Shown: positions 9,655-45,235, numbered from the stretch's first letter. The stretch is 64,000 nucleotides of DNA from an uncultured bacterium (GCA_963746775.1 CAVVCK010000001.1:483151-547150); one strand, 5' to 3'. Notes: a model not told the origin generated them from the sequence alone. Numbers and translations are program-made.

Positions 9655-9728
9655 TGGAGGCCTGGACCGGACTTGAACCGGTGTACTCGGTTTTGCAGAC
9701 CGATGCGTAACCACTCCGCCACCAGGCC
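9655..9728 (-). tRNA. tRNA-Cys (GCA), CCA encoded
   Basis: Hand-folded: acceptor GGCCTGG/CCAGGCC, anticodon stem-loop TCGGT-CTGCAAA-ACCGA, T-arm ACCGGTTCAAGTCCGGT. Confidence 0.8.
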
Positions 9729-9768
9729 CTTCAATCCGGATATTATAAAAATCTAATTATATTCCTAA

Positions 9769-9839
9769 GCGGGCAAGCAGAATCGAACTGCCGTCTCGTC
9801 CTTGGCAAGGACGCATAATAGCCACTATACGATGCCCGC
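9769..9839 (-). tRNA. tRNA-Gly (GCC)
   Basis: Hand-folded: acceptor GCGGGCA/TGCCCGC, anticodon loop TTGCCAA, T-loop TTCGATT. Confidence 0.8.
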
Positions 9840-9931
9840 CCGGTTAGAAATTTTGGTAAATTAGAGATACTGTTAATTAATATTTTGTAATAATCAACAG
9901 TAGAAGCATTACGAACCAATACTTCTAACCG
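9840..9931. repeat. tRNA-5'-abutting hairpin element with terminal inverted repeats, copy 1
   Basis: Left end CCGGTTAGAAATTTTGG and right end CCAATACTTCTAACCG are inverted. Starts at the first base after the tRNA-Gly 5' end. Same TIR family as 11654..11758 and 30591..30690. Confidence 0.6.
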
Positions 9932-11579: not shown

Positions 11580-11654
11580 TGGTGCCGGGGGAGAGAATTG
11601 AACTCTCGACACAAGGATTTTCAGTCCTTTGCTCTACCACTGAGCTACCCCGGC
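11580..11654 (-). tRNA. tRNA-Phe (GAA), CCA encoded
   Basis: Reverse complement GCCGGGGTAGCTCAGTGGTAGAGCAAAGGACTGAAAATCCTTGTGTCGAGAGTTCAATTCTCTCCCCCGGCACCA folds canonically. Confidence 0.85.
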
Positions 11655-11758
11655 CAGTTAGAAGTTTTGGCAATTGACGTTTATACTATTGTTTCTAGTT
11701 TTACAACAATCAACGGTACAGGTTTTGATTACCAATACTTCTAACTGGCCACCGGCCC
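11654..11758. repeat. tRNA-5'-abutting hairpin element with 17-bp terminal inverted repeats, copy 2
   Basis: CCAGTTAGAAGTTTTGG ... CCAATACTTCTAACTGG is a perfect or near-perfect inversion. The left end overlaps the first base of tRNA-Phe. Confidence 0.65.
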
Positions 11759-11790
11759 TAAGTTAATATTATAATTTTTCTTTTCCCTTG

Positions 11791-11867
11791 GTGGGCGATC
11801 GAGGACTCGAACCTCGGACCTCGTCATTATCAGTGACGCGCTCTAACCACCTGAGCTAATCGCCCCC
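11791..11867 (-). tRNA. tRNA-Ile (GAT) in the 16S downstream spacer, CCA encoded
   Basis: Reverse complement GGGCGATTAGCTCAGGTGGTTAGAGCGCGTCACTGATAATGACGAGGTCCGAGGTTCGAGTCCTCGATCGCCCACCA. Confidence 0.8.
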
Positions 11868-12124: not shown

Positions 12125-13630
<1,506 letters not shown>

Positions 13631-13886
13631 AAAAATGATTTGAGAAAATAAATTCTCAAATTATAGAGATTGAGTCTTATGGTTTAATAAATTAAACCAG
13701 ACTCCGAGCTCTAAAAAAATTATAAAGCATGTTACATATCACCAAGTGATACATACATTATTGTTCCTATCGCTTTTCAATTGTTAATGTTCTTGAATCT
13801 CAGTACAAAAAACTACCTTAGATAACCTAAGATATTACAAACTTTTTATACTTAGTTTCAGTATTAATAATTTAATATACTAAATA

Positions 13887-40915: not shown

Positions 40916-42112
40916 TTAACTATTATACTTCTCTAGCGCATCTTTTAATAATTCCATCGCATGAGCCAAGTCTTCAGACTTAAGAACATAGGCGATTCTT
41001 ATTTCATCTAATCCTAGTCCTGGTGTGGCATAAAATCCGGGAGCGGGGGCTATCATTACCGTTTCTTTATTATTTTCATATTTTTCTAATATCCATTTAG
41101 CAAAATCTTCTGAATCTTTAATGGGAAGTCTGGGTAGAGCATAGAAAGCACCTTCAGGTTTAAGACAAGTAACTCCATCTATCTTTTGTAAATATTCATA
41201 AACGGTATTTCTTCTTTTTCTATATTCTTCTACAACTGGTGGAACTAATTCCAAAGAATTTTCCAAAGCTGGTACAGCAGCCAATTGTTCTATTGTGGCT
41301 ACTGATAATCTTGCTTGACCGAATTTTAAGGCGCAGGCAATCACCTCTTTGTTTTTAGAAGCCAGACAGCCGATTCTAATGCCGCAAGAACTAAATCTTT
41401 TCGAAATACTATCTTGAATAATTACTCTATCCTCTACTCCTTTAATATCGAGCATGCTAGTCACTCGACCCTCTCCATCTAAATTAAATTCTCTATAAGT
41501 TTCATCTGATAAAATGAATAAATTATGTTCAATGGCTATATCAGCGATTACTTGTAATTCTTCTTTAGTGTAAACGGTGCCGGTGGGATTATTAGGATTA
41601 CAAATTATTATTGCCTTCGTTTTATTGGTAATTTTTTCTTCTATTTTTTCTTTGGTAGGCAATCTAAAACCATCTTCGACGCTAGTTTTGACAGGTACTA
41701 CTTTACAGCCGACTACTGAAGAAAAGCCATTATAATTAGTGTAAAAAGGTTCGAAAGTTATTACTTCCTCATAAGGATCACAGGTAATAGCCATAGCAAA
41801 AGCAATAGCCTCACTACCGCCGGAAGTGACAATTATATCTTCAGCTCTCAAATCTATTTTATTGTCTTGATAATATTTCTCCCAAGCAGATTTACATTCA
41901 GCAAGACCATCTGAGGGAGCGTAAGCCACTGATTTTTCATGGAATTTTTCTATAGCTTCTCGAATTACAGAAGGAGTTTCAATATCAGGCTGGCCGATAT
42001 TTAAATGGTATACTTTTACTCCTCTGGCCTTAGCTTCGTTAGCAAAGGGAATTAGTTTTCGTAAAGGAGACGACTGGGCCTCGGCTGCACGTTTTGAAAC
42101 TTTTGGAGACAT
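40916..42112 (-). CDS. PLP-dependent class I/II aminotransferase (aspartate/aromatic type)
   Basis: 398 aa. PLP-lysine context SISKRFSSCGIRIG. N/D ... Y ... motifs of fold type I. Confidence 0.75.
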   Translation of the reverse strand: MSPKVSKRAAEAQSSPLRKLIPFANEAKARGVKVYHLNIGQPDIETPSVIREAIEKFHEKSVAYAPSDGLAECKSAWEKYYQDNKIDLRAEDIIVTSGGSEAIAFAMAITCDPYEEVITFEPFYTNYNGFSSVVGCKVVPVKTSVEDGFRLPTKEKIEEKITNKTKAIIICNPNNPTGTVYTKEELQVIADIAIEHNLFILSDETYREFNLDGEGRVTSMLDIKGVEDRVIIQDSISKRFSSCGIRIGCLASKNKEVIACALKFGQARLSVATIEQLAAVPALENSLELVPPVVEEYRKRRNTVYEYLQKIDGVTCLKPEGAFYALPRLPIKDSEDFAKWILEKYENNKETVMIAPAPGFYATPGLGLDEIRIAYVLKSEDLAHAMELLKDALEKYNS

Positions 42113-42230
42113 AATTTTTTATTAATTTATATTATAGTATCATACGAATTACTGTTTATTATAAATTTCTTCGGATCTAATGTCAAAAAACTTATTAACA
42201 GGTATTATTAAGAAGTATAAAATATAAAAA

Positions 42231-42277
42231 TACGCCCCTGTAGAGGCAGGTTTTAAACCCGTCTCTACAGGGGCGTA
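42231..42277. terminator. long near-perfect palindrome (TACGCCCCTGTAGAGGCAGG-TTTTAAA-CCCGTCTCTACAGGGGCGTA), bidirectional terminator-like
   Basis: 20-bp arms with an A-run upstream and a T-run downstream. Separates the Cys-rich peptide gene from the aminotransferase gene. Confidence 0.5.
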
Positions 42278-42300
42278 TTTATTAAAATTGCTTGTTTAGC

Positions 42301-42408
42301 TTATTCTTCATCATCTCCACCACAACATCCTCCACAATCATCACAGCCACCATTAAAGTCACAACAACCGCCGCCGAAACAGCAGCCTCCACCTATTAAT
42401 TTTTTCAT
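42301..42408 (-). CDS. 35-aa Cys/Gly-rich peptide (MKKLIGGGCCFGGGCCDFNGGCDDCGGCCGGDDEE), metallothionein-like or RiPP-precursor-like
   Basis: Strong SD GGGAGGTGA 8 nt upstream of ATG. 11 Cys in 35 residues, including four CC pairs. Acidic tail. Own terminator downstream. Confidence 0.5.
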   Translation of the reverse strand: MKKLIGGGCCFGGGCCDFNGGCDDCGGCCGGDDEE

Positions 42409-42419
42409 ATTTATCACCT

Positions 42420-42556
42420 CCCTCGTGTTAATTTATTAATATAAAATAAAATGCGTCCTCTCCCTTTATAAAAGGGAGAGCTAGAGAGGGATTTTTACTA
42501 CATAATTTTGTGGTATAAATCTCCCTCTAACCCCCTCTTTTGTTTAAGAGGGAGGA
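42420..42556 (-). promoter_or_regulatory. structured leader: three consecutive stem-loops built from GGGAG/CTCCC units between the permease and the Cys-rich peptide gene
   Basis: In minus-strand sense the stem-loops are CCTCCCTCTT-AAACAA-AAGAGGGGG, TAGAGGGAGATTT-(24 nt)-AAATCCCTCTCTA and CTCTCCCTT-TTATAA-AGGGAGAG, followed by a U-rich stretch and then the SD. Confidence 0.4.
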
Positions 42557-43510
42557 CTAAAGGACTTTTTCCAGAAAATTAAATAAATAGCCTATCAATA
42601 TTATACCAAATCCGACAATTGTAAAGAATATGGCTAATAATCTGCCTCTCATAATTCTTTTCAATATTATACCCTCGGGTAGGGAAAGTCCAGCGATAGA
42701 CATCATAAAAGCCAGGGAAGTACCCAGTGGTACACCGTTAGCTGTAATACTGAAAATTAAAGGAACAACGGTAGAGCAGCCGGCGTAAATTGGAATACCG
42801 ATTATAACGGCTACTGGAACAGCTAGAAAATTATATTTTCCAATAATATTCATAAAAAAATCTTGAGGAACATAGCCGTGAATAATAGCTCCAATAGCTA
42901 CACCTCCTAGGACGTATAGAAATAGTTTTTTGAAAGTTTTTTTCCCTTCTTTCAGAGAATATTTAATTTTTTTAGAAAATTCTTGAGGAAGAGTTTTGAA
43001 TTTTTTATCTTTATTATTATCATTTAAGATTATCTGATCATCCATTCTAAGAGATCCTAAGATCATGCCAGCTACTACTCCCAGAATAATTCCAGTTAGG
43101 GCGTAAATAATAGCCAATGTCCAACCAAATAATTCCCCCATCAAAACAAAGGCTATTTCGTTAACTAGAGGTGAGGTAATGAGAAAAGAAAAGGCAATTC
43201 CCATAGGAACTTTTGCCTTTATAAAACCAATAAATAAAGGGATAGAAGAGCAGGAACAAAAAGGAGTAACTGAGCCAAAAAGAGAGGCAATAATATTTCC
43301 TATACCAAATTTTGATTTAGAAGCAGCTTTTTGCACTTTAGAAATTGGAAAATATGTACGTACGAAAGCAATAATTGAGACAACTATAAAAATTAAGAAT
43401 AATATTTTTAGAGAATCATAAATAAAGAAATTGAGAGCAATATCGAGCTTTGATTGTTCGGATAAATTTAGAATATTGTGAGTAATGAGATTAGCGATAT
43501 ATTGAAACAT
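42557..43510 (-). CDS. DUF318/ArsP-type permease with vicinal-Cys TPFCSCSS motif
   Basis: 317 aa, about 8 TM helices. Motif VTPFCSCSSIPLFIGF is characteristic of the YraQ/ArsP predicted-permease family. Confidence 0.6.
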   Translation of the reverse strand: MFQYIANLITHNILNLSEQSKLDIALNFFIYDSLKILFLIFIVVSIIAFVRTYFPISKVQKAASKSKFGIGNIIASLFGSVTPFCSCSSIPLFIGFIKAKVPMGIAFSFLITSPLVNEIAFVLMGELFGWTLAIIYALTGIILGVVAGMILGSLRMDDQIILNDNNKDKKFKTLPQEFSKKIKYSLKEGKKTFKKLFLYVLGGVAIGAIIHGYVPQDFFMNIIGKYNFLAVPVAVIIGIPIYAGCSTVVPLIFSITANGVPLGTSLAFMMSIAGLSLPEGIILKRIMRGRLLAIFFTIVGFGIILIGYLFNFLEKVL

Positions 43511-43644
43511 GGGAGTAGAATTTATAAATTATAATGTAAAATGTAAAATTAATTATAAAACATTATTATTTTAATGTAAAAAATGTTTTGATTATTCTAT
43601 TTTCTTTGCTAATATCTACTTATAAATTTCGAATTCAAAAATCC

Positions 43645-44103
43645 GAATGACGAATAAATGACAAAAATAAAAAATGCCTAAGATAAAATATGATCTTGAA
43701 GAAAGGACGGCTATATTTGGTGAAAATATAATAAAATTTACAAGAAAAATACCAAAAGACCCAGTAAATATTTCTTTAATAAGTCAATGCACTAGATCTG
43801 GTACAAGTGTTGGAGCTAATTATCGTGAAGCAGATGATGCACAATCTGGTAGAGATTTTTTACATAAAATTAGTATATGTAAAAAAGAATCTAGAGAGAC
43901 AAAACATTGGCTTAGGATGATTGTAGAATCGTCACCAATCTTAAAAGAAGAAGCAAGAATATTATATAAAGAAGCTCAAGAGTTAAATCTAATCTTTGCA
44001 GCAATTATTAGAAATAAAAAAGAAAATGATTTAGTGAAAAAGCGTAAAAAGATTAGTCATTGAATCATTAAATAATTTATTCTTCATTCTGGTTTATTAA
44101 TTA
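43645..44103 (+). mobile_element. four-helix-bundle (IVS-protein) gene cassette bounded by conserved end motifs (CGAATAAATGACAAA ... TTCATTCTGGTTT)
   Basis: The same end motifs bound an ORF-less 77-bp copy at 57246..57322. GAATGAC ... GTCATTC inverted at the extremities. Confidence 0.5.
43674..44063 (+). CDS. four-helix-bundle protein (23S rRNA intervening-sequence protein family, TIGR02436-like)
   Basis: SQCTRSGTSVGANYREADDAQSGRDFLHKISICKKESRETKHWLRMI matches the family core (RSGTSVGANY.EA ... F.HKL.IA.KE.RET.YWL). Confidence 0.7.
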   Translation: MPKIKYDLEERTAIFGENIIKFTRKIPKDPVNISLISQCTRSGTSVGANYREADDAQSGRDFLHKISICKKESRETKHWLRMIVESSPILKEEARILYKEAQELNLIFAAIIRNKKENDLVKKRKKISH

Positions 44104-44117
44104 GTCATTCAAATTAA

Positions 44118-45185
44118 ATGTCTTTACAAATCGGCATTGTAGGGTTGCCCAATGTTGGCAAATCAACCCTATTCCAAGCCTTAACTAAAAAACAAGTAGA
44201 TAGATCTAATTACCCCTTTTGTACCATTGATCCAAATGTAGGGGTTGTTAAGGTACCTGATTTTCGGGTAGATAAATTAGCAGAAATATCTAAATCGGCT
44301 AAGAAAATTTATGCTACAGTAGAATTTGTTGATATTGCTGGATTAGTGAAAGGTGCTAGTCAAGGAGAGGGTTTGGGTAATAAATTTCTAGCAAACATAA
44401 GGGAAGTAGATTTAATTTGCTATGTATTGCGCTGTTTTAAAAATGATAAAATTATAAAGCATGATTCCAGTCAAGATCCTATATCTGATAAAGAAATCCT
44501 AGATGCAGAAATGGCTCTGAAAGATTTGGAAACTTTGGATAAAAGAATATCAGGACTAGAGCGCGAAGCAAAATCTGGTGATAAAGAGAAAATATTTGAG
44601 CTTGAAGTAATAAAGAAAGCAAAAGTTATCATTGAGCGTGATCAAGTTTTATATAAAGAAGATTGGGAAAAAGAAGAGAAGAAAGTATTGAAGCAATATG
44701 AATTTTTGACTTTCAAACCTAGGCTATATTTATTAAATGGAAATAAAGATGAGATTGATGAGAATGTAATTCAAAAATTTGAGAAAAATAATTGGCCCTA
44801 TTTAATAATAAATATATTGGAAGAATTTGATGCTATTGGATTAACTGTCGATGAGCGCAGGGAATTAGAATTACCAGAAAAATTAGAAATGGATAATTTA
44901 ATTAAGAAGGCTTATGAGAAGTTAGGCTTAATTACCTTCCTAACCACGGGTGAAGATGAAACTAGAGCTTGGACTACAGATAAAGGATCTAGTGCACCTC
45001 AGGCTTCTGGTGTTATTCATACTGATTTTGAAAAATATTTTATCAATGCGGAGGTGGTGAGCTATAGTGATTTGGTTGAAGTGGGTGGATTGGTTCAGGC
45101 TAGAGAGAGAGGATTAGTTCGAACTGAGGGGAAAGGTTATATTGTAAAGGATGGGGATGTAATTGAGGTAAGGAGTGGGAAATAG
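44118..45185 (+). CDS. ychF: ribosome-binding ATPase YchF
   Basis: GIVGLPNVGKSTLFQALT ... NYPFCTIDPNVGVV. C-terminal TGS domain. 355 aa. Confidence 0.85.
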   Translation: MSLQIGIVGLPNVGKSTLFQALTKKQVDRSNYPFCTIDPNVGVVKVPDFRVDKLAEISKSAKKIYATVEFVDIAGLVKGASQGEGLGNKFLANIREVDLICYVLRCFKNDKIIKHDSSQDPISDKEILDAEMALKDLETLDKRISGLEREAKSGDKEKIFELEVIKKAKVIIERDQVLYKEDWEKEEKKVLKQYEFLTFKPRLYLLNGNKDEIDENVIQKFEKNNWPYLIINILEEFDAIGLTVDERRELELPEKLEMDNLIKKAYEKLGLITFLTTGEDETRAWTTDKGSSAPQASGVIHTDFEKYFINAEVVSYSDLVEVGGLVQARERGLVRTEGKGYIVKDGDVIEVRSGK

Positions 45186-45188
45186 ATG

Positions 45189-45235
45189 GAGACAGGTTTG
45201 AAACCTGTCTGTACGGGTAAAGGCCTTATTTTTTA
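45189..45235 (+). terminator. intrinsic terminator after ychF (AGACAGGTTTGAAACCTGTCT ... T-run)
   Basis: Perfect inverted repeat followed by TTTTTT. Related in sequence to the 42231 palindrome (CAGGTTT-AAACC core). Confidence 0.5.

Follow-up and report, generated by a model that had tools for sequence, protein, structure and literature searches.

The stretch of DNA analysed here (64,000 nucleotides, in the following called the window) has a GC content of 32% and belongs to a Patescibacteria/Parcubacteria genome. Its minus strand, the sense strand of the locus, carries a gene for an ArsP_1-family permease and downstream of it, in the same orientation, a gene for a short Cys/Gly-rich peptide. 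The 148-nt spacer between them contains three consecutive hairpins, H1, H2 and H3 (Table 1). The permease, for which 7578 homologues were found, matches the SaoE and SO_0444 Cu/Zn efflux families of NCBIfam below threshold, and its CSC motif is typical of the SO_0444/SaoE metal-efflux relatives. The promoter-like site in front of the permease gene resembles sigma-70 sites and is, judged from its match to the consensus, likely the promoter of the operon, and an intrinsic terminator follows the peptide gene. Neither promoter-like nor terminator-like calls were obtained by the consensus and terminator scans within the 148-nt spacer. In some relatives only 15 nt separate the two genes, which implies an operon, and we infer that permease and peptide are co-transcribed. 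The Logan assembly L029 is identical to the window base for base across the region; since it is independent, the hairpins are not an assembly artefact. The identical locus was assembled in run ERR11571143.

A gene for a 23S-IVP-family (four-helix-bundle) protein (43674-44063) adjoins the permease gene. Elsewhere, the window contains a complete 16S rRNA gene (12127-13636, minus strand), then tRNA-Ile and tRNA-Phe (tRNA genes 11580-11865 and 9655-9840); a 23S rRNA gene was not found in the 64 kb.

Table 1. Features of the permease-peptide locus in the window and of corresponding loci in related genomes
Feature	DNA	Position	Strand	Description
Promoter-like site TTTACA-17-TATAAT	window	43552..43580	-	consensus scan 11/12; ~40 nt 5' of permease ATG
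ArsP_1-family permease gene	window	42557-43510	-	317 aa, CSC motif, upstream cistron; Pfam PF03773 E=6e-61
Permease stop codon TAG	window	42557-42559	-	
Hairpin H1	window	42531-42554	-	CCTCCCTCTT/AAACAA/AAGAGGGGG; 9 bp incl. one G.U; 6-nt loop; -13.8 kcal/mol
Hairpin H2	window	42482-42529	-	TAGAGGGAGATTTATAC...GTAAAAATCCCTCTCTA; 21 bp, three internal mismatches; -15.6 kcal/mol
Hairpin H3	window	42458-42480	-	CTCTCCCTTT/TAT/AAAGGGAGAG; 10 perfect bp, 3-nt loop; -13.6 kcal/mol
U-rich tract UUUUAUUUU	window	42443..42451	-	begins 6 nt past H3; no call in terminator scan
A/T-rich block ATATTAATAAAYTnAYACGA	window	42425..42442	-	alignment; common to window, L030 and L031; between H3 and Shine-Dalgarno sequence
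Peptide-gene Shine-Dalgarno sequence GAGGGAGGUGAU (= GAGGGAGGTGAT / GGAGGUGAU)	window	42413-42424	-	
Cys/Gly-rich peptide gene	window	42301-42408	-	ORF, 35 aa, MKKLIGGGCCFGGGCCDFNGGCDDCGGCCGGDDEE; downstream cistron
Intrinsic terminator of operon	window	42228-42280	-	26-nt arms then T-run; terminator scan
Peptide gene	L030	1109-1204		
Peptide gene	L031	4120-4224		
Peptide gene	L037	4161-4262		
Peptide gene	L038	448-546		
Peptide gene	L040	3964-4080		
Peptide gene	L043	3017-3112		
Dispersed palindrome	window	45190-45214, 42232-42276		
Dispersed palindrome	L031	604-624		
Dispersed palindrome	L040	622-647		
Dispersed palindrome	L042	1865-1895		
Dispersed palindrome	L043	145-165, 3144-3174		
Spacer, 148 nt	window / L029			H1-H3
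Spacer, 171 nt	L031-36			H1, H2, H3 and a 22-nt GC mini-hairpin nested in H2 3' arm; no U-tract after H3
Spacer, 72 nt	L030			decayed H3 only, 3/10 pairs broken; fold z = -0.6
Spacer, 212 nt	L037			AT-rich, no significant structure (z = +0.9)
Spacer, ~180 nt	L038/39			AT-rich, unstructured; adjoins truncated permease
Spacer, 15 nt	L040-42 and L043			AGGGAGGTGATATAT

The three hairpins were located, as the preliminary description had stated, between the permease stop codon and the Shine-Dalgarno sequence of the peptide gene. The 171-nt stretch containing them folds with -52.7 kcal/mol compared to -33.1 ± 3.5 kcal/mol for dinucleotide shuffles (z = -5.6; none of 200 shuffles was as good), and in the ensemble the pair probabilities are 0.96 for H1, 0.99 for H2 and 0.96 for H3. 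Both in the window and in the relative L031, H1 starts 2 nt past the permease stop codon. The reuse of the same purine and pyrimidine words, also described before, was found as well: H1 and H3 are paralogous units of the form CTCCCTYTT-N3-6-AARAGGGAG with CTYTAG before each, and the pattern CTCCCT-N(3-33)-AGGGAG occurs twice in the 64-kb window (0.06 expected), both times in this spacer. The apical loop of H2 contains a start-stop AUG UAG (42501-42506, minus strand), present at the same position in L031 and probably incidental because no Shine-Dalgarno sequence lies at a usable distance.

H1-H3 belongs to no described RNA family. At the gathering threshold, Rfam detected the 16S rRNA and tRNAs only in the whole window, and in a permissive scan of 41000-44500 the hairpins gave chance-level miRNA/sRNA matches only (MIR825 28 bits, gathering 160). 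A sub-threshold AdoCbl-II match (42783-42857, minus strand; 28.3 bits vs a gathering value of 36.5, E=0.001) falls within the coding region of the permease and was attributed to chance. An attC/integron-like site was rejected as well, the R'/R'' core motifs being unmatched and no integrase being nearby. The same applies for read-through or recoding of the UAG in front of H1: a second in-frame TAG follows 9 codons on in the window and in L031, and the C-terminus of the permease aligns end-to-end with homologues ending at TAA or TGA.

Nine nucleotides of the peptide-gene Shine-Dalgarno sequence are perfectly complementary to the 3' tail of the genome's own 16S rRNA (GGAUCACCUCCUUUCU, ~12127), and GGAGGTGATA is kept in every lineage with the peptide. 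In the ensemble the sequence is mostly unpaired (0.65). The exact word AGGGAGG, which had been reported from the hairpins, occurs only in this true Shine-Dalgarno sequence; in the hairpin arms it is varied to AGGGAGA and GAGGGGG. The permease gene, in contrast to the peptide gene with its perfect 9-nt Shine-Dalgarno sequence, is preceded by no recognisable one (43511-43525, minus strand; ...AATTCTACTCCC ATG), suggesting that the translation efficiencies of the two cistrons are very different.

Relatives with the permease-peptide pair were found via a protein collection and one metagenome scan and represent six lineages. In all 28 GTDB species representatives with a related permease (54-73% identity) the peptide is absent downstream of it, so that these are of no use for a comparison of the leaders. 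The trio H1-H3 is present in two of the six lineages, those of the window and of L031. Permease identities define two clades, one comprising the window and L030 (93%), the other L031, L037, P0003 and P0007 (81-90%), with 73% between them. Each clade thus holds both carriers and non-carriers of the trio; L030, the closest relative of the window, is without an intact one. The hairpin cassette is therefore dispensable, having been lost or never present in four of the six lineages. Comparison of the spacers leads us to infer that the 15-nt junction of L040-43, with the Shine-Dalgarno sequence directly after the permease stop codon, would be the basal arrangement, presumably with co-transcription and tight translational coupling.

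Between the two carrier lineages the trio appears to be under constraint. In the hairpin block, 93 of 99 aligned positions (94%) are identical between the window and L031, compared to 76% for the permease DNA, 82% for the YchF DNA and 56-65%, which is near noise level, for other non-coding DNA. Synonymous sites in the last 40 permease codons have clearly diverged right up to the stop codon, which makes a recent transfer of the segment unlikely. Substitutions affect 2 of 74 paired positions but 13 of 72 loop and flank positions (Fisher p=0.002), and both stem changes keep or improve pairing on the sense strand. In H1 of L031, one pair is changed from G.U to A-U. H2 is 95.6% identical between the two; the 22-nt insertion of L031 forms a side hairpin and leaves H2 unbroken. 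This constraint on the stems, seen against one distant lineage, makes a cis-acting role on the operon plausible. Base-pair changes could be followed at 37 pairs in three sequences only and comprise three single-sided ones that keep pairing and no double changes. As the loops are near-identical between the carriers alongside the stems, the lack of covariation hints at sequence-specific recognition.

The peptides found in the six lineages, which represent one Parcubacteria clade, have 31-38 aa and are rich in Cys and Gly; their genes directly follow the one for the CSC-motif ArsP_1 permease. Invariant in all six is the N-terminus M[KT]KLIGGGCC, and each lineage also keeps the Shine-Dalgarno sequence and the terminator; these conserved features clearly identify the peptide gene as a real gene. 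The C-terminus GGCCGGDDE is found in four of the six, the forms in the family being GGCCGGDDEE or CGGCG[I]K; the peptide of the window reads MKKLIGGGCC...GGCCGGDDEE. No Pfam or NCBIfam family exists for the peptide. A HMMER scan of 1.8 billion representative proteins gave no matches, a concatenated two-peptide protein query yielded nothing at E<=10, and an exact look-up found no record. The failure of these protein searches is likely due to the short length and low complexity of the peptide. A degenerate DNA pattern for MxKLIGGGCC detected one further lineage only in the metagenome collection, L038/L039. Of the permease gene, this lineage has only the last 45-60 codons left (L038 86-265, L039 1351-1485); an AT-rich spacer of ~180 nt and an intact peptide gene with its Shine-Dalgarno sequence and terminator follow. 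An intact permease next to it is therefore not required for the peptide to persist. The peptide probably binds metal as a partner of the exporter, the two forming a metal-handling pair.

We consider it the best reading, with a probability of roughly 0.4, that H1-H2-H3 is a lineage-restricted structured cassette in a bicistronic mRNA which uncouples the two genes via processing or stabilisation. About 100 nt of stable hairpins part the two cistrons in the window lineage and in L031. They would replace the tight coupling of the 15-nt state, and the expression of permease and small peptide would thus be separated after transcription. H1, abutting the stop codon, may cap the permease segment and protect its 3' end, and it could delay ribosomes at termination as well. 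H2, with its long imperfect duplex, is a plausible entry site for an endonuclease of the RNase III type. H3 would then be left to protect the 5' end of the peptide segment, about 35 nt before the peptide Shine-Dalgarno sequence, which is predicted to stay single-stranded and available to the 16S tail it matches perfectly. As a result, permease and peptide would be made in a fixed, unequal stoichiometry, with no ligand-dependent switching. The layout of the operon agrees with this, one good promoter preceding the permease, one strong terminator following the peptide and none being called in between; so does the ensemble, which is dominated by the hairpins and leaves the Shine-Dalgarno sequence mostly free. 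Other observations argue against it. The cassette is dispensable, even in the sister lineage L030, only two independent lineages carry it, and no compensatory double substitution was found. The identity of the loops is not explained by a role that any stable hairpin could fill. Furthermore, the antisense strand folds slightly better, so that the energies do not settle that the sense-strand RNA is the active form.

Stem-loops with such properties are known from other bacteria. In malE-malF, in puf and throughout the E. coli genome, the stoichiometry of operons is set by intergenic stem-loops that lack a U-tract (PMC5927463); the same holds for the products of the Clostridium cip-cel operon (PMC4423207). 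Like the REP hairpin of E. coli malE-malF, the Rhodobacter puf hairpins and E. coli menBCE (PMC5927463), H1-H3 are stable, have no adjacent U-tract and lie between cistrons that are co-transcribed, in our case presumably. The operons with differential decay described there may also contain several consecutive hairpins, which are more conserved than their surroundings (PMC5927463). The malE-malF REP element, however, occurs genome-wide, whereas the trio is single-copy in the DNA searched. In addition, and unlike malE-malF, puf and menBCE, it shares words resembling Shine-Dalgarno and anti-Shine-Dalgarno sequences and is missing from most relatives. For the SRPS of Clostridium cellulolyticum cip-cel, related species differ in how many stem-loops they have and in how strong these are, as they do here (PMC4423207; PMC10311766). 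There, stem-loops and processing sites set the stoichiometry from one primary transcript; in the present case the processing is presumed, and the partners are not enzyme subunits but a permease and a 35-aa peptide in an uncultured member of the Patescibacteria. The trio is thus a real and statistically strong intercistronic structured mRNA element and is best filed under that known kind. With stable stem-loops between two cistrons it fits the protective stem-loop/SRPS class in its positional and structural features only, processing, RNase III dependence and abundance being presumed.

The position of H1 recalls another known effect. A REP element near a stop codon, as Liang, Rudd and Deutscher reportedly found in 2015, stalls ribosomes at termination and thereby lowers expression of the gene in front of it. 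As H1 starts 2 nt past that codon of the permease gene in both carriers, a terminating ribosome must melt it. H1, unlike such elements, does not belong to a repeated REP family, and an effect on termination or trans-translation is a prediction.

Alternatively, it might be that the hairpins are selfish or neutral palindromic DNA, i.e. inserted or duplicated modules (MITE/PATE- or REP-like, or generated by template switching from the Shine-Dalgarno word AGGGAG) with no role in expression. We regard this as a serious, though unlikely, alternative. The presence or absence of the trio among close relatives is patchy and modular, H1 and H3 are paralogous, and H2 of L031 contains a nested 22-nt palindrome. 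In the same genomes, terminator loops harbour another family of palindromes, which is truly dispersed. Moreover, the gap in L030, where H1 and H2 are missing, lies exactly between the direct repeats CTTTAG and CTCTAG, which precede H1 and H3. In small hairpin modules, modular gain and loss, nested insertion and CTYTAG boundary repeats the trio resembles REP/BIME and IS200/IS605-derived MITE/PATE elements. The repeats around the H1+H2 unit and the indel in L030 are, however, equally well explained by a deletion between direct repeats as by MITE/PATE boundaries, and the location of the gap points to loss rather than gain. REP/BIME elements are recognised by many dispersed copies. Further copies of H1-H3 were found neither by BLAST nor by pattern search nor with a covariance model in the 64-kb window (~12% of the ~0.55-Mb genome) and 215 kb from 37 related loci, 279 kb in total, which speaks against a mobile element of high copy number. 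Neither a transposase gene nor a RAYT gene lies close by. The H2 and H3 patterns gave no matches in viral contigs and blastn against phage records gave a chance 37-nt match only, so neither source links the trio to a mobile element or phage. The trio also differs from mobile palindromes in occupying the same site in two diverged lineages. For neutral DNA, a block identity of 94% next to ~56-65% in other non-coding DNA and diverged synonymous sites would need recent independent insertions at this very site.

A leaky terminator combined with an internal promoter is distinctly unlikely. Most permease transcripts would then be stopped at the hairpins, and the A/T-rich block, or TTTACA in the H3 loop, would drive a separate peptide transcript. 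The preliminary description had the last hairpin followed by a U-rich tract. Such a tract is indeed present in the window, but it starts 6 nt off the stem and is not kept in L031, which has AACGTATCTTAATAT at this place. None of the three hairpins combines a G+C-rich stem with a T-run within 0-2 nt in the window or in L031, and no terminator was called for H1-H3 in either; structures that do combine both are found at 42228-42280 in the window and at the equivalent place after the peptide gene in L031, L037 and L038. As to the promoter, ATATTAATAAAYT of the A/T-rich block is kept in the window, L030 and L031, and L031 contains TTTACA-18-TAATAT with the -35 element in the H3 loop. In the window, no sigma-70-like site was called in the block (42425-42442) or elsewhere in the spacer, and the site in L031 is at chance level (2 found vs 1.8 expected). 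The survival of the peptide gene in L038/39 without an intact permease makes an own promoter possible in some lineages; the 15-nt junctions are too short for one. A candidate internal promoter at the 3' end of the permease gene (TTTACA...TGGTATAAT) was rejected because in this AT-rich genome it is inseparable from codon constraints (FFTIVGFGII).

Binding at the DNA level, where the palindromes H1, H3 and H2 would be operators for a dimeric, possibly metal-responsive regulator acting as a roadblock or on an internal promoter, seems quite improbable to us. It would account for the perfect or near-perfect palindromes and for conservation at the sequence level, including the loops, without covariation, and the operon appears metal-related (CSC motif of the permease, CC motifs of the peptide). 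The thermodynamics would not contradict it either. The antisense fold of the whole stretch has -54.8 kcal/mol, and the hairpin block -49.7 kcal/mol as antisense vs -44.4 kcal/mol as sense, so that the antisense folds as well or slightly better and the strand is not assignable from fold energies; G.U pairs favoured neither strand as well. On the other hand, G/C-rich arms of 10 to more than 20 nt are long for operators, and no regulator gene adjoins the operon in the window. In relatives, a gene for 127-141 aa lies 5' of the permease. As a candidate regulator it was rejected, since it has no Pfam match and is present with or without the hairpins.

The composition of the arms allows a further, very improbable reading, in which the trio would be a sequence-specific cis-regulatory RNA module of one Parcubacteria clade whose arms mimic the duplex of Shine-Dalgarno and anti-Shine-Dalgarno sequence, making peptide synthesis dependent on permease translation or on a metal/thiol signal. 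The pyrimidine arms are similar to the 16S tail and the purine arms to its complement, AGAAAGGAGG, which suggests, speculatively, the 16S tail as a candidate partner. A ribosome terminating on the permease would melt H1, and the Shine-Dalgarno-like words set free might capture the 30S subunit and relay it to the distant peptide Shine-Dalgarno sequence, or they might re-pair and mask this sequence. An invariant partner such as 16S rRNA would explain sequence conservation without covariation.

The idea from which the analysis started, an attenuator or riboswitch platform in which GGGAG/CTCCC re-pairing responds to a ligand or to translation and controls read-through or access to the Shine-Dalgarno sequence, is extremely improbable. 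The purine and pyrimidine words are mutually complementary, and the 5' arm of H1 (CCTCCCTC) is the exact complement of the Shine-Dalgarno sequence GAGGGAGG. If the 3' arm of H3 is blocked, an alternative fold sequesters the Shine-Dalgarno sequence. The mutually exclusive pairings that had been suggested thus exist on paper, but they are uncompetitive: with H3 blocked, the best structure reaches -48.2 kcal/mol vs -54.2 kcal/mol, i.e. it is 6 kcal/mol worse, and all three hairpins have pair probabilities of at least 0.96. The U-rich tract of the window would fit an attenuator but is not conserved. Neither conserved multi-helix junctions nor an unpaired aptamer-like core was found in the trio, Rfam gave no match, and the spacer has no leader peptide ORF preceded by a Shine-Dalgarno sequence. 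A lack of conservation in relatives with the same gene pair had been named as the result on which the idea would fall; the trio is missing or decayed in four of the six lineages. In the trp leader, the T-box and the riboswitches of Rfam, too, a run of hairpins whose arms could in principle re-pair stands 5' of a gene. The trio, however, sits between two cistrons and not after a promoter, and a conserved terminator is lacking. H1-H3 does not look like a sensor but like an optional structured spacer in the operon mRNA. An antisense RNA from the hairpin region is possible, but is without promoter or terminator support.

To our knowledge, almost nothing is known about the regulatory RNA biology of Patescibacteria. 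If the processing or stabilisation proposed for the cassette holds, the trio would be among the first indications of post-transcriptional tuning of operon stoichiometry in these tiny-genome bacteria. As a regulatory RNA its significance is modest, as it is not a riboswitch, is known from two lineages and is dispensable. The series of spacers represents a natural experiment, with 15 nt, with one decayed hairpin, with three hairpins and, in L031, with three and a nested fourth. The peptide-permease pair with its spacer variants is thus a convenient test case, and it highlights a Cys/Gly-rich peptide that is conserved, lacks annotation and is paired with an ArsP-type permease carrying the CSC motif.

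The dispersed palindrome GTACAGAC[A/G]GGTTTnAAACC[T/C]GTCTGTAC is nested in the loops of otherwise ordinary terminator hairpins. Two copies are present in the window compared to none expected, and several related genomes carry the palindrome 3' of YchF and of the peptide gene; a remnant was observed in L030 at ~1240. It looks like a REP-like or protein-binding module of the clade. One copy forms the inner part of the operon terminator at 42228-42280, and the 22-nt insert in H2 of L031 has CCTGCCTCT in common with a variant of the palindrome in the window.
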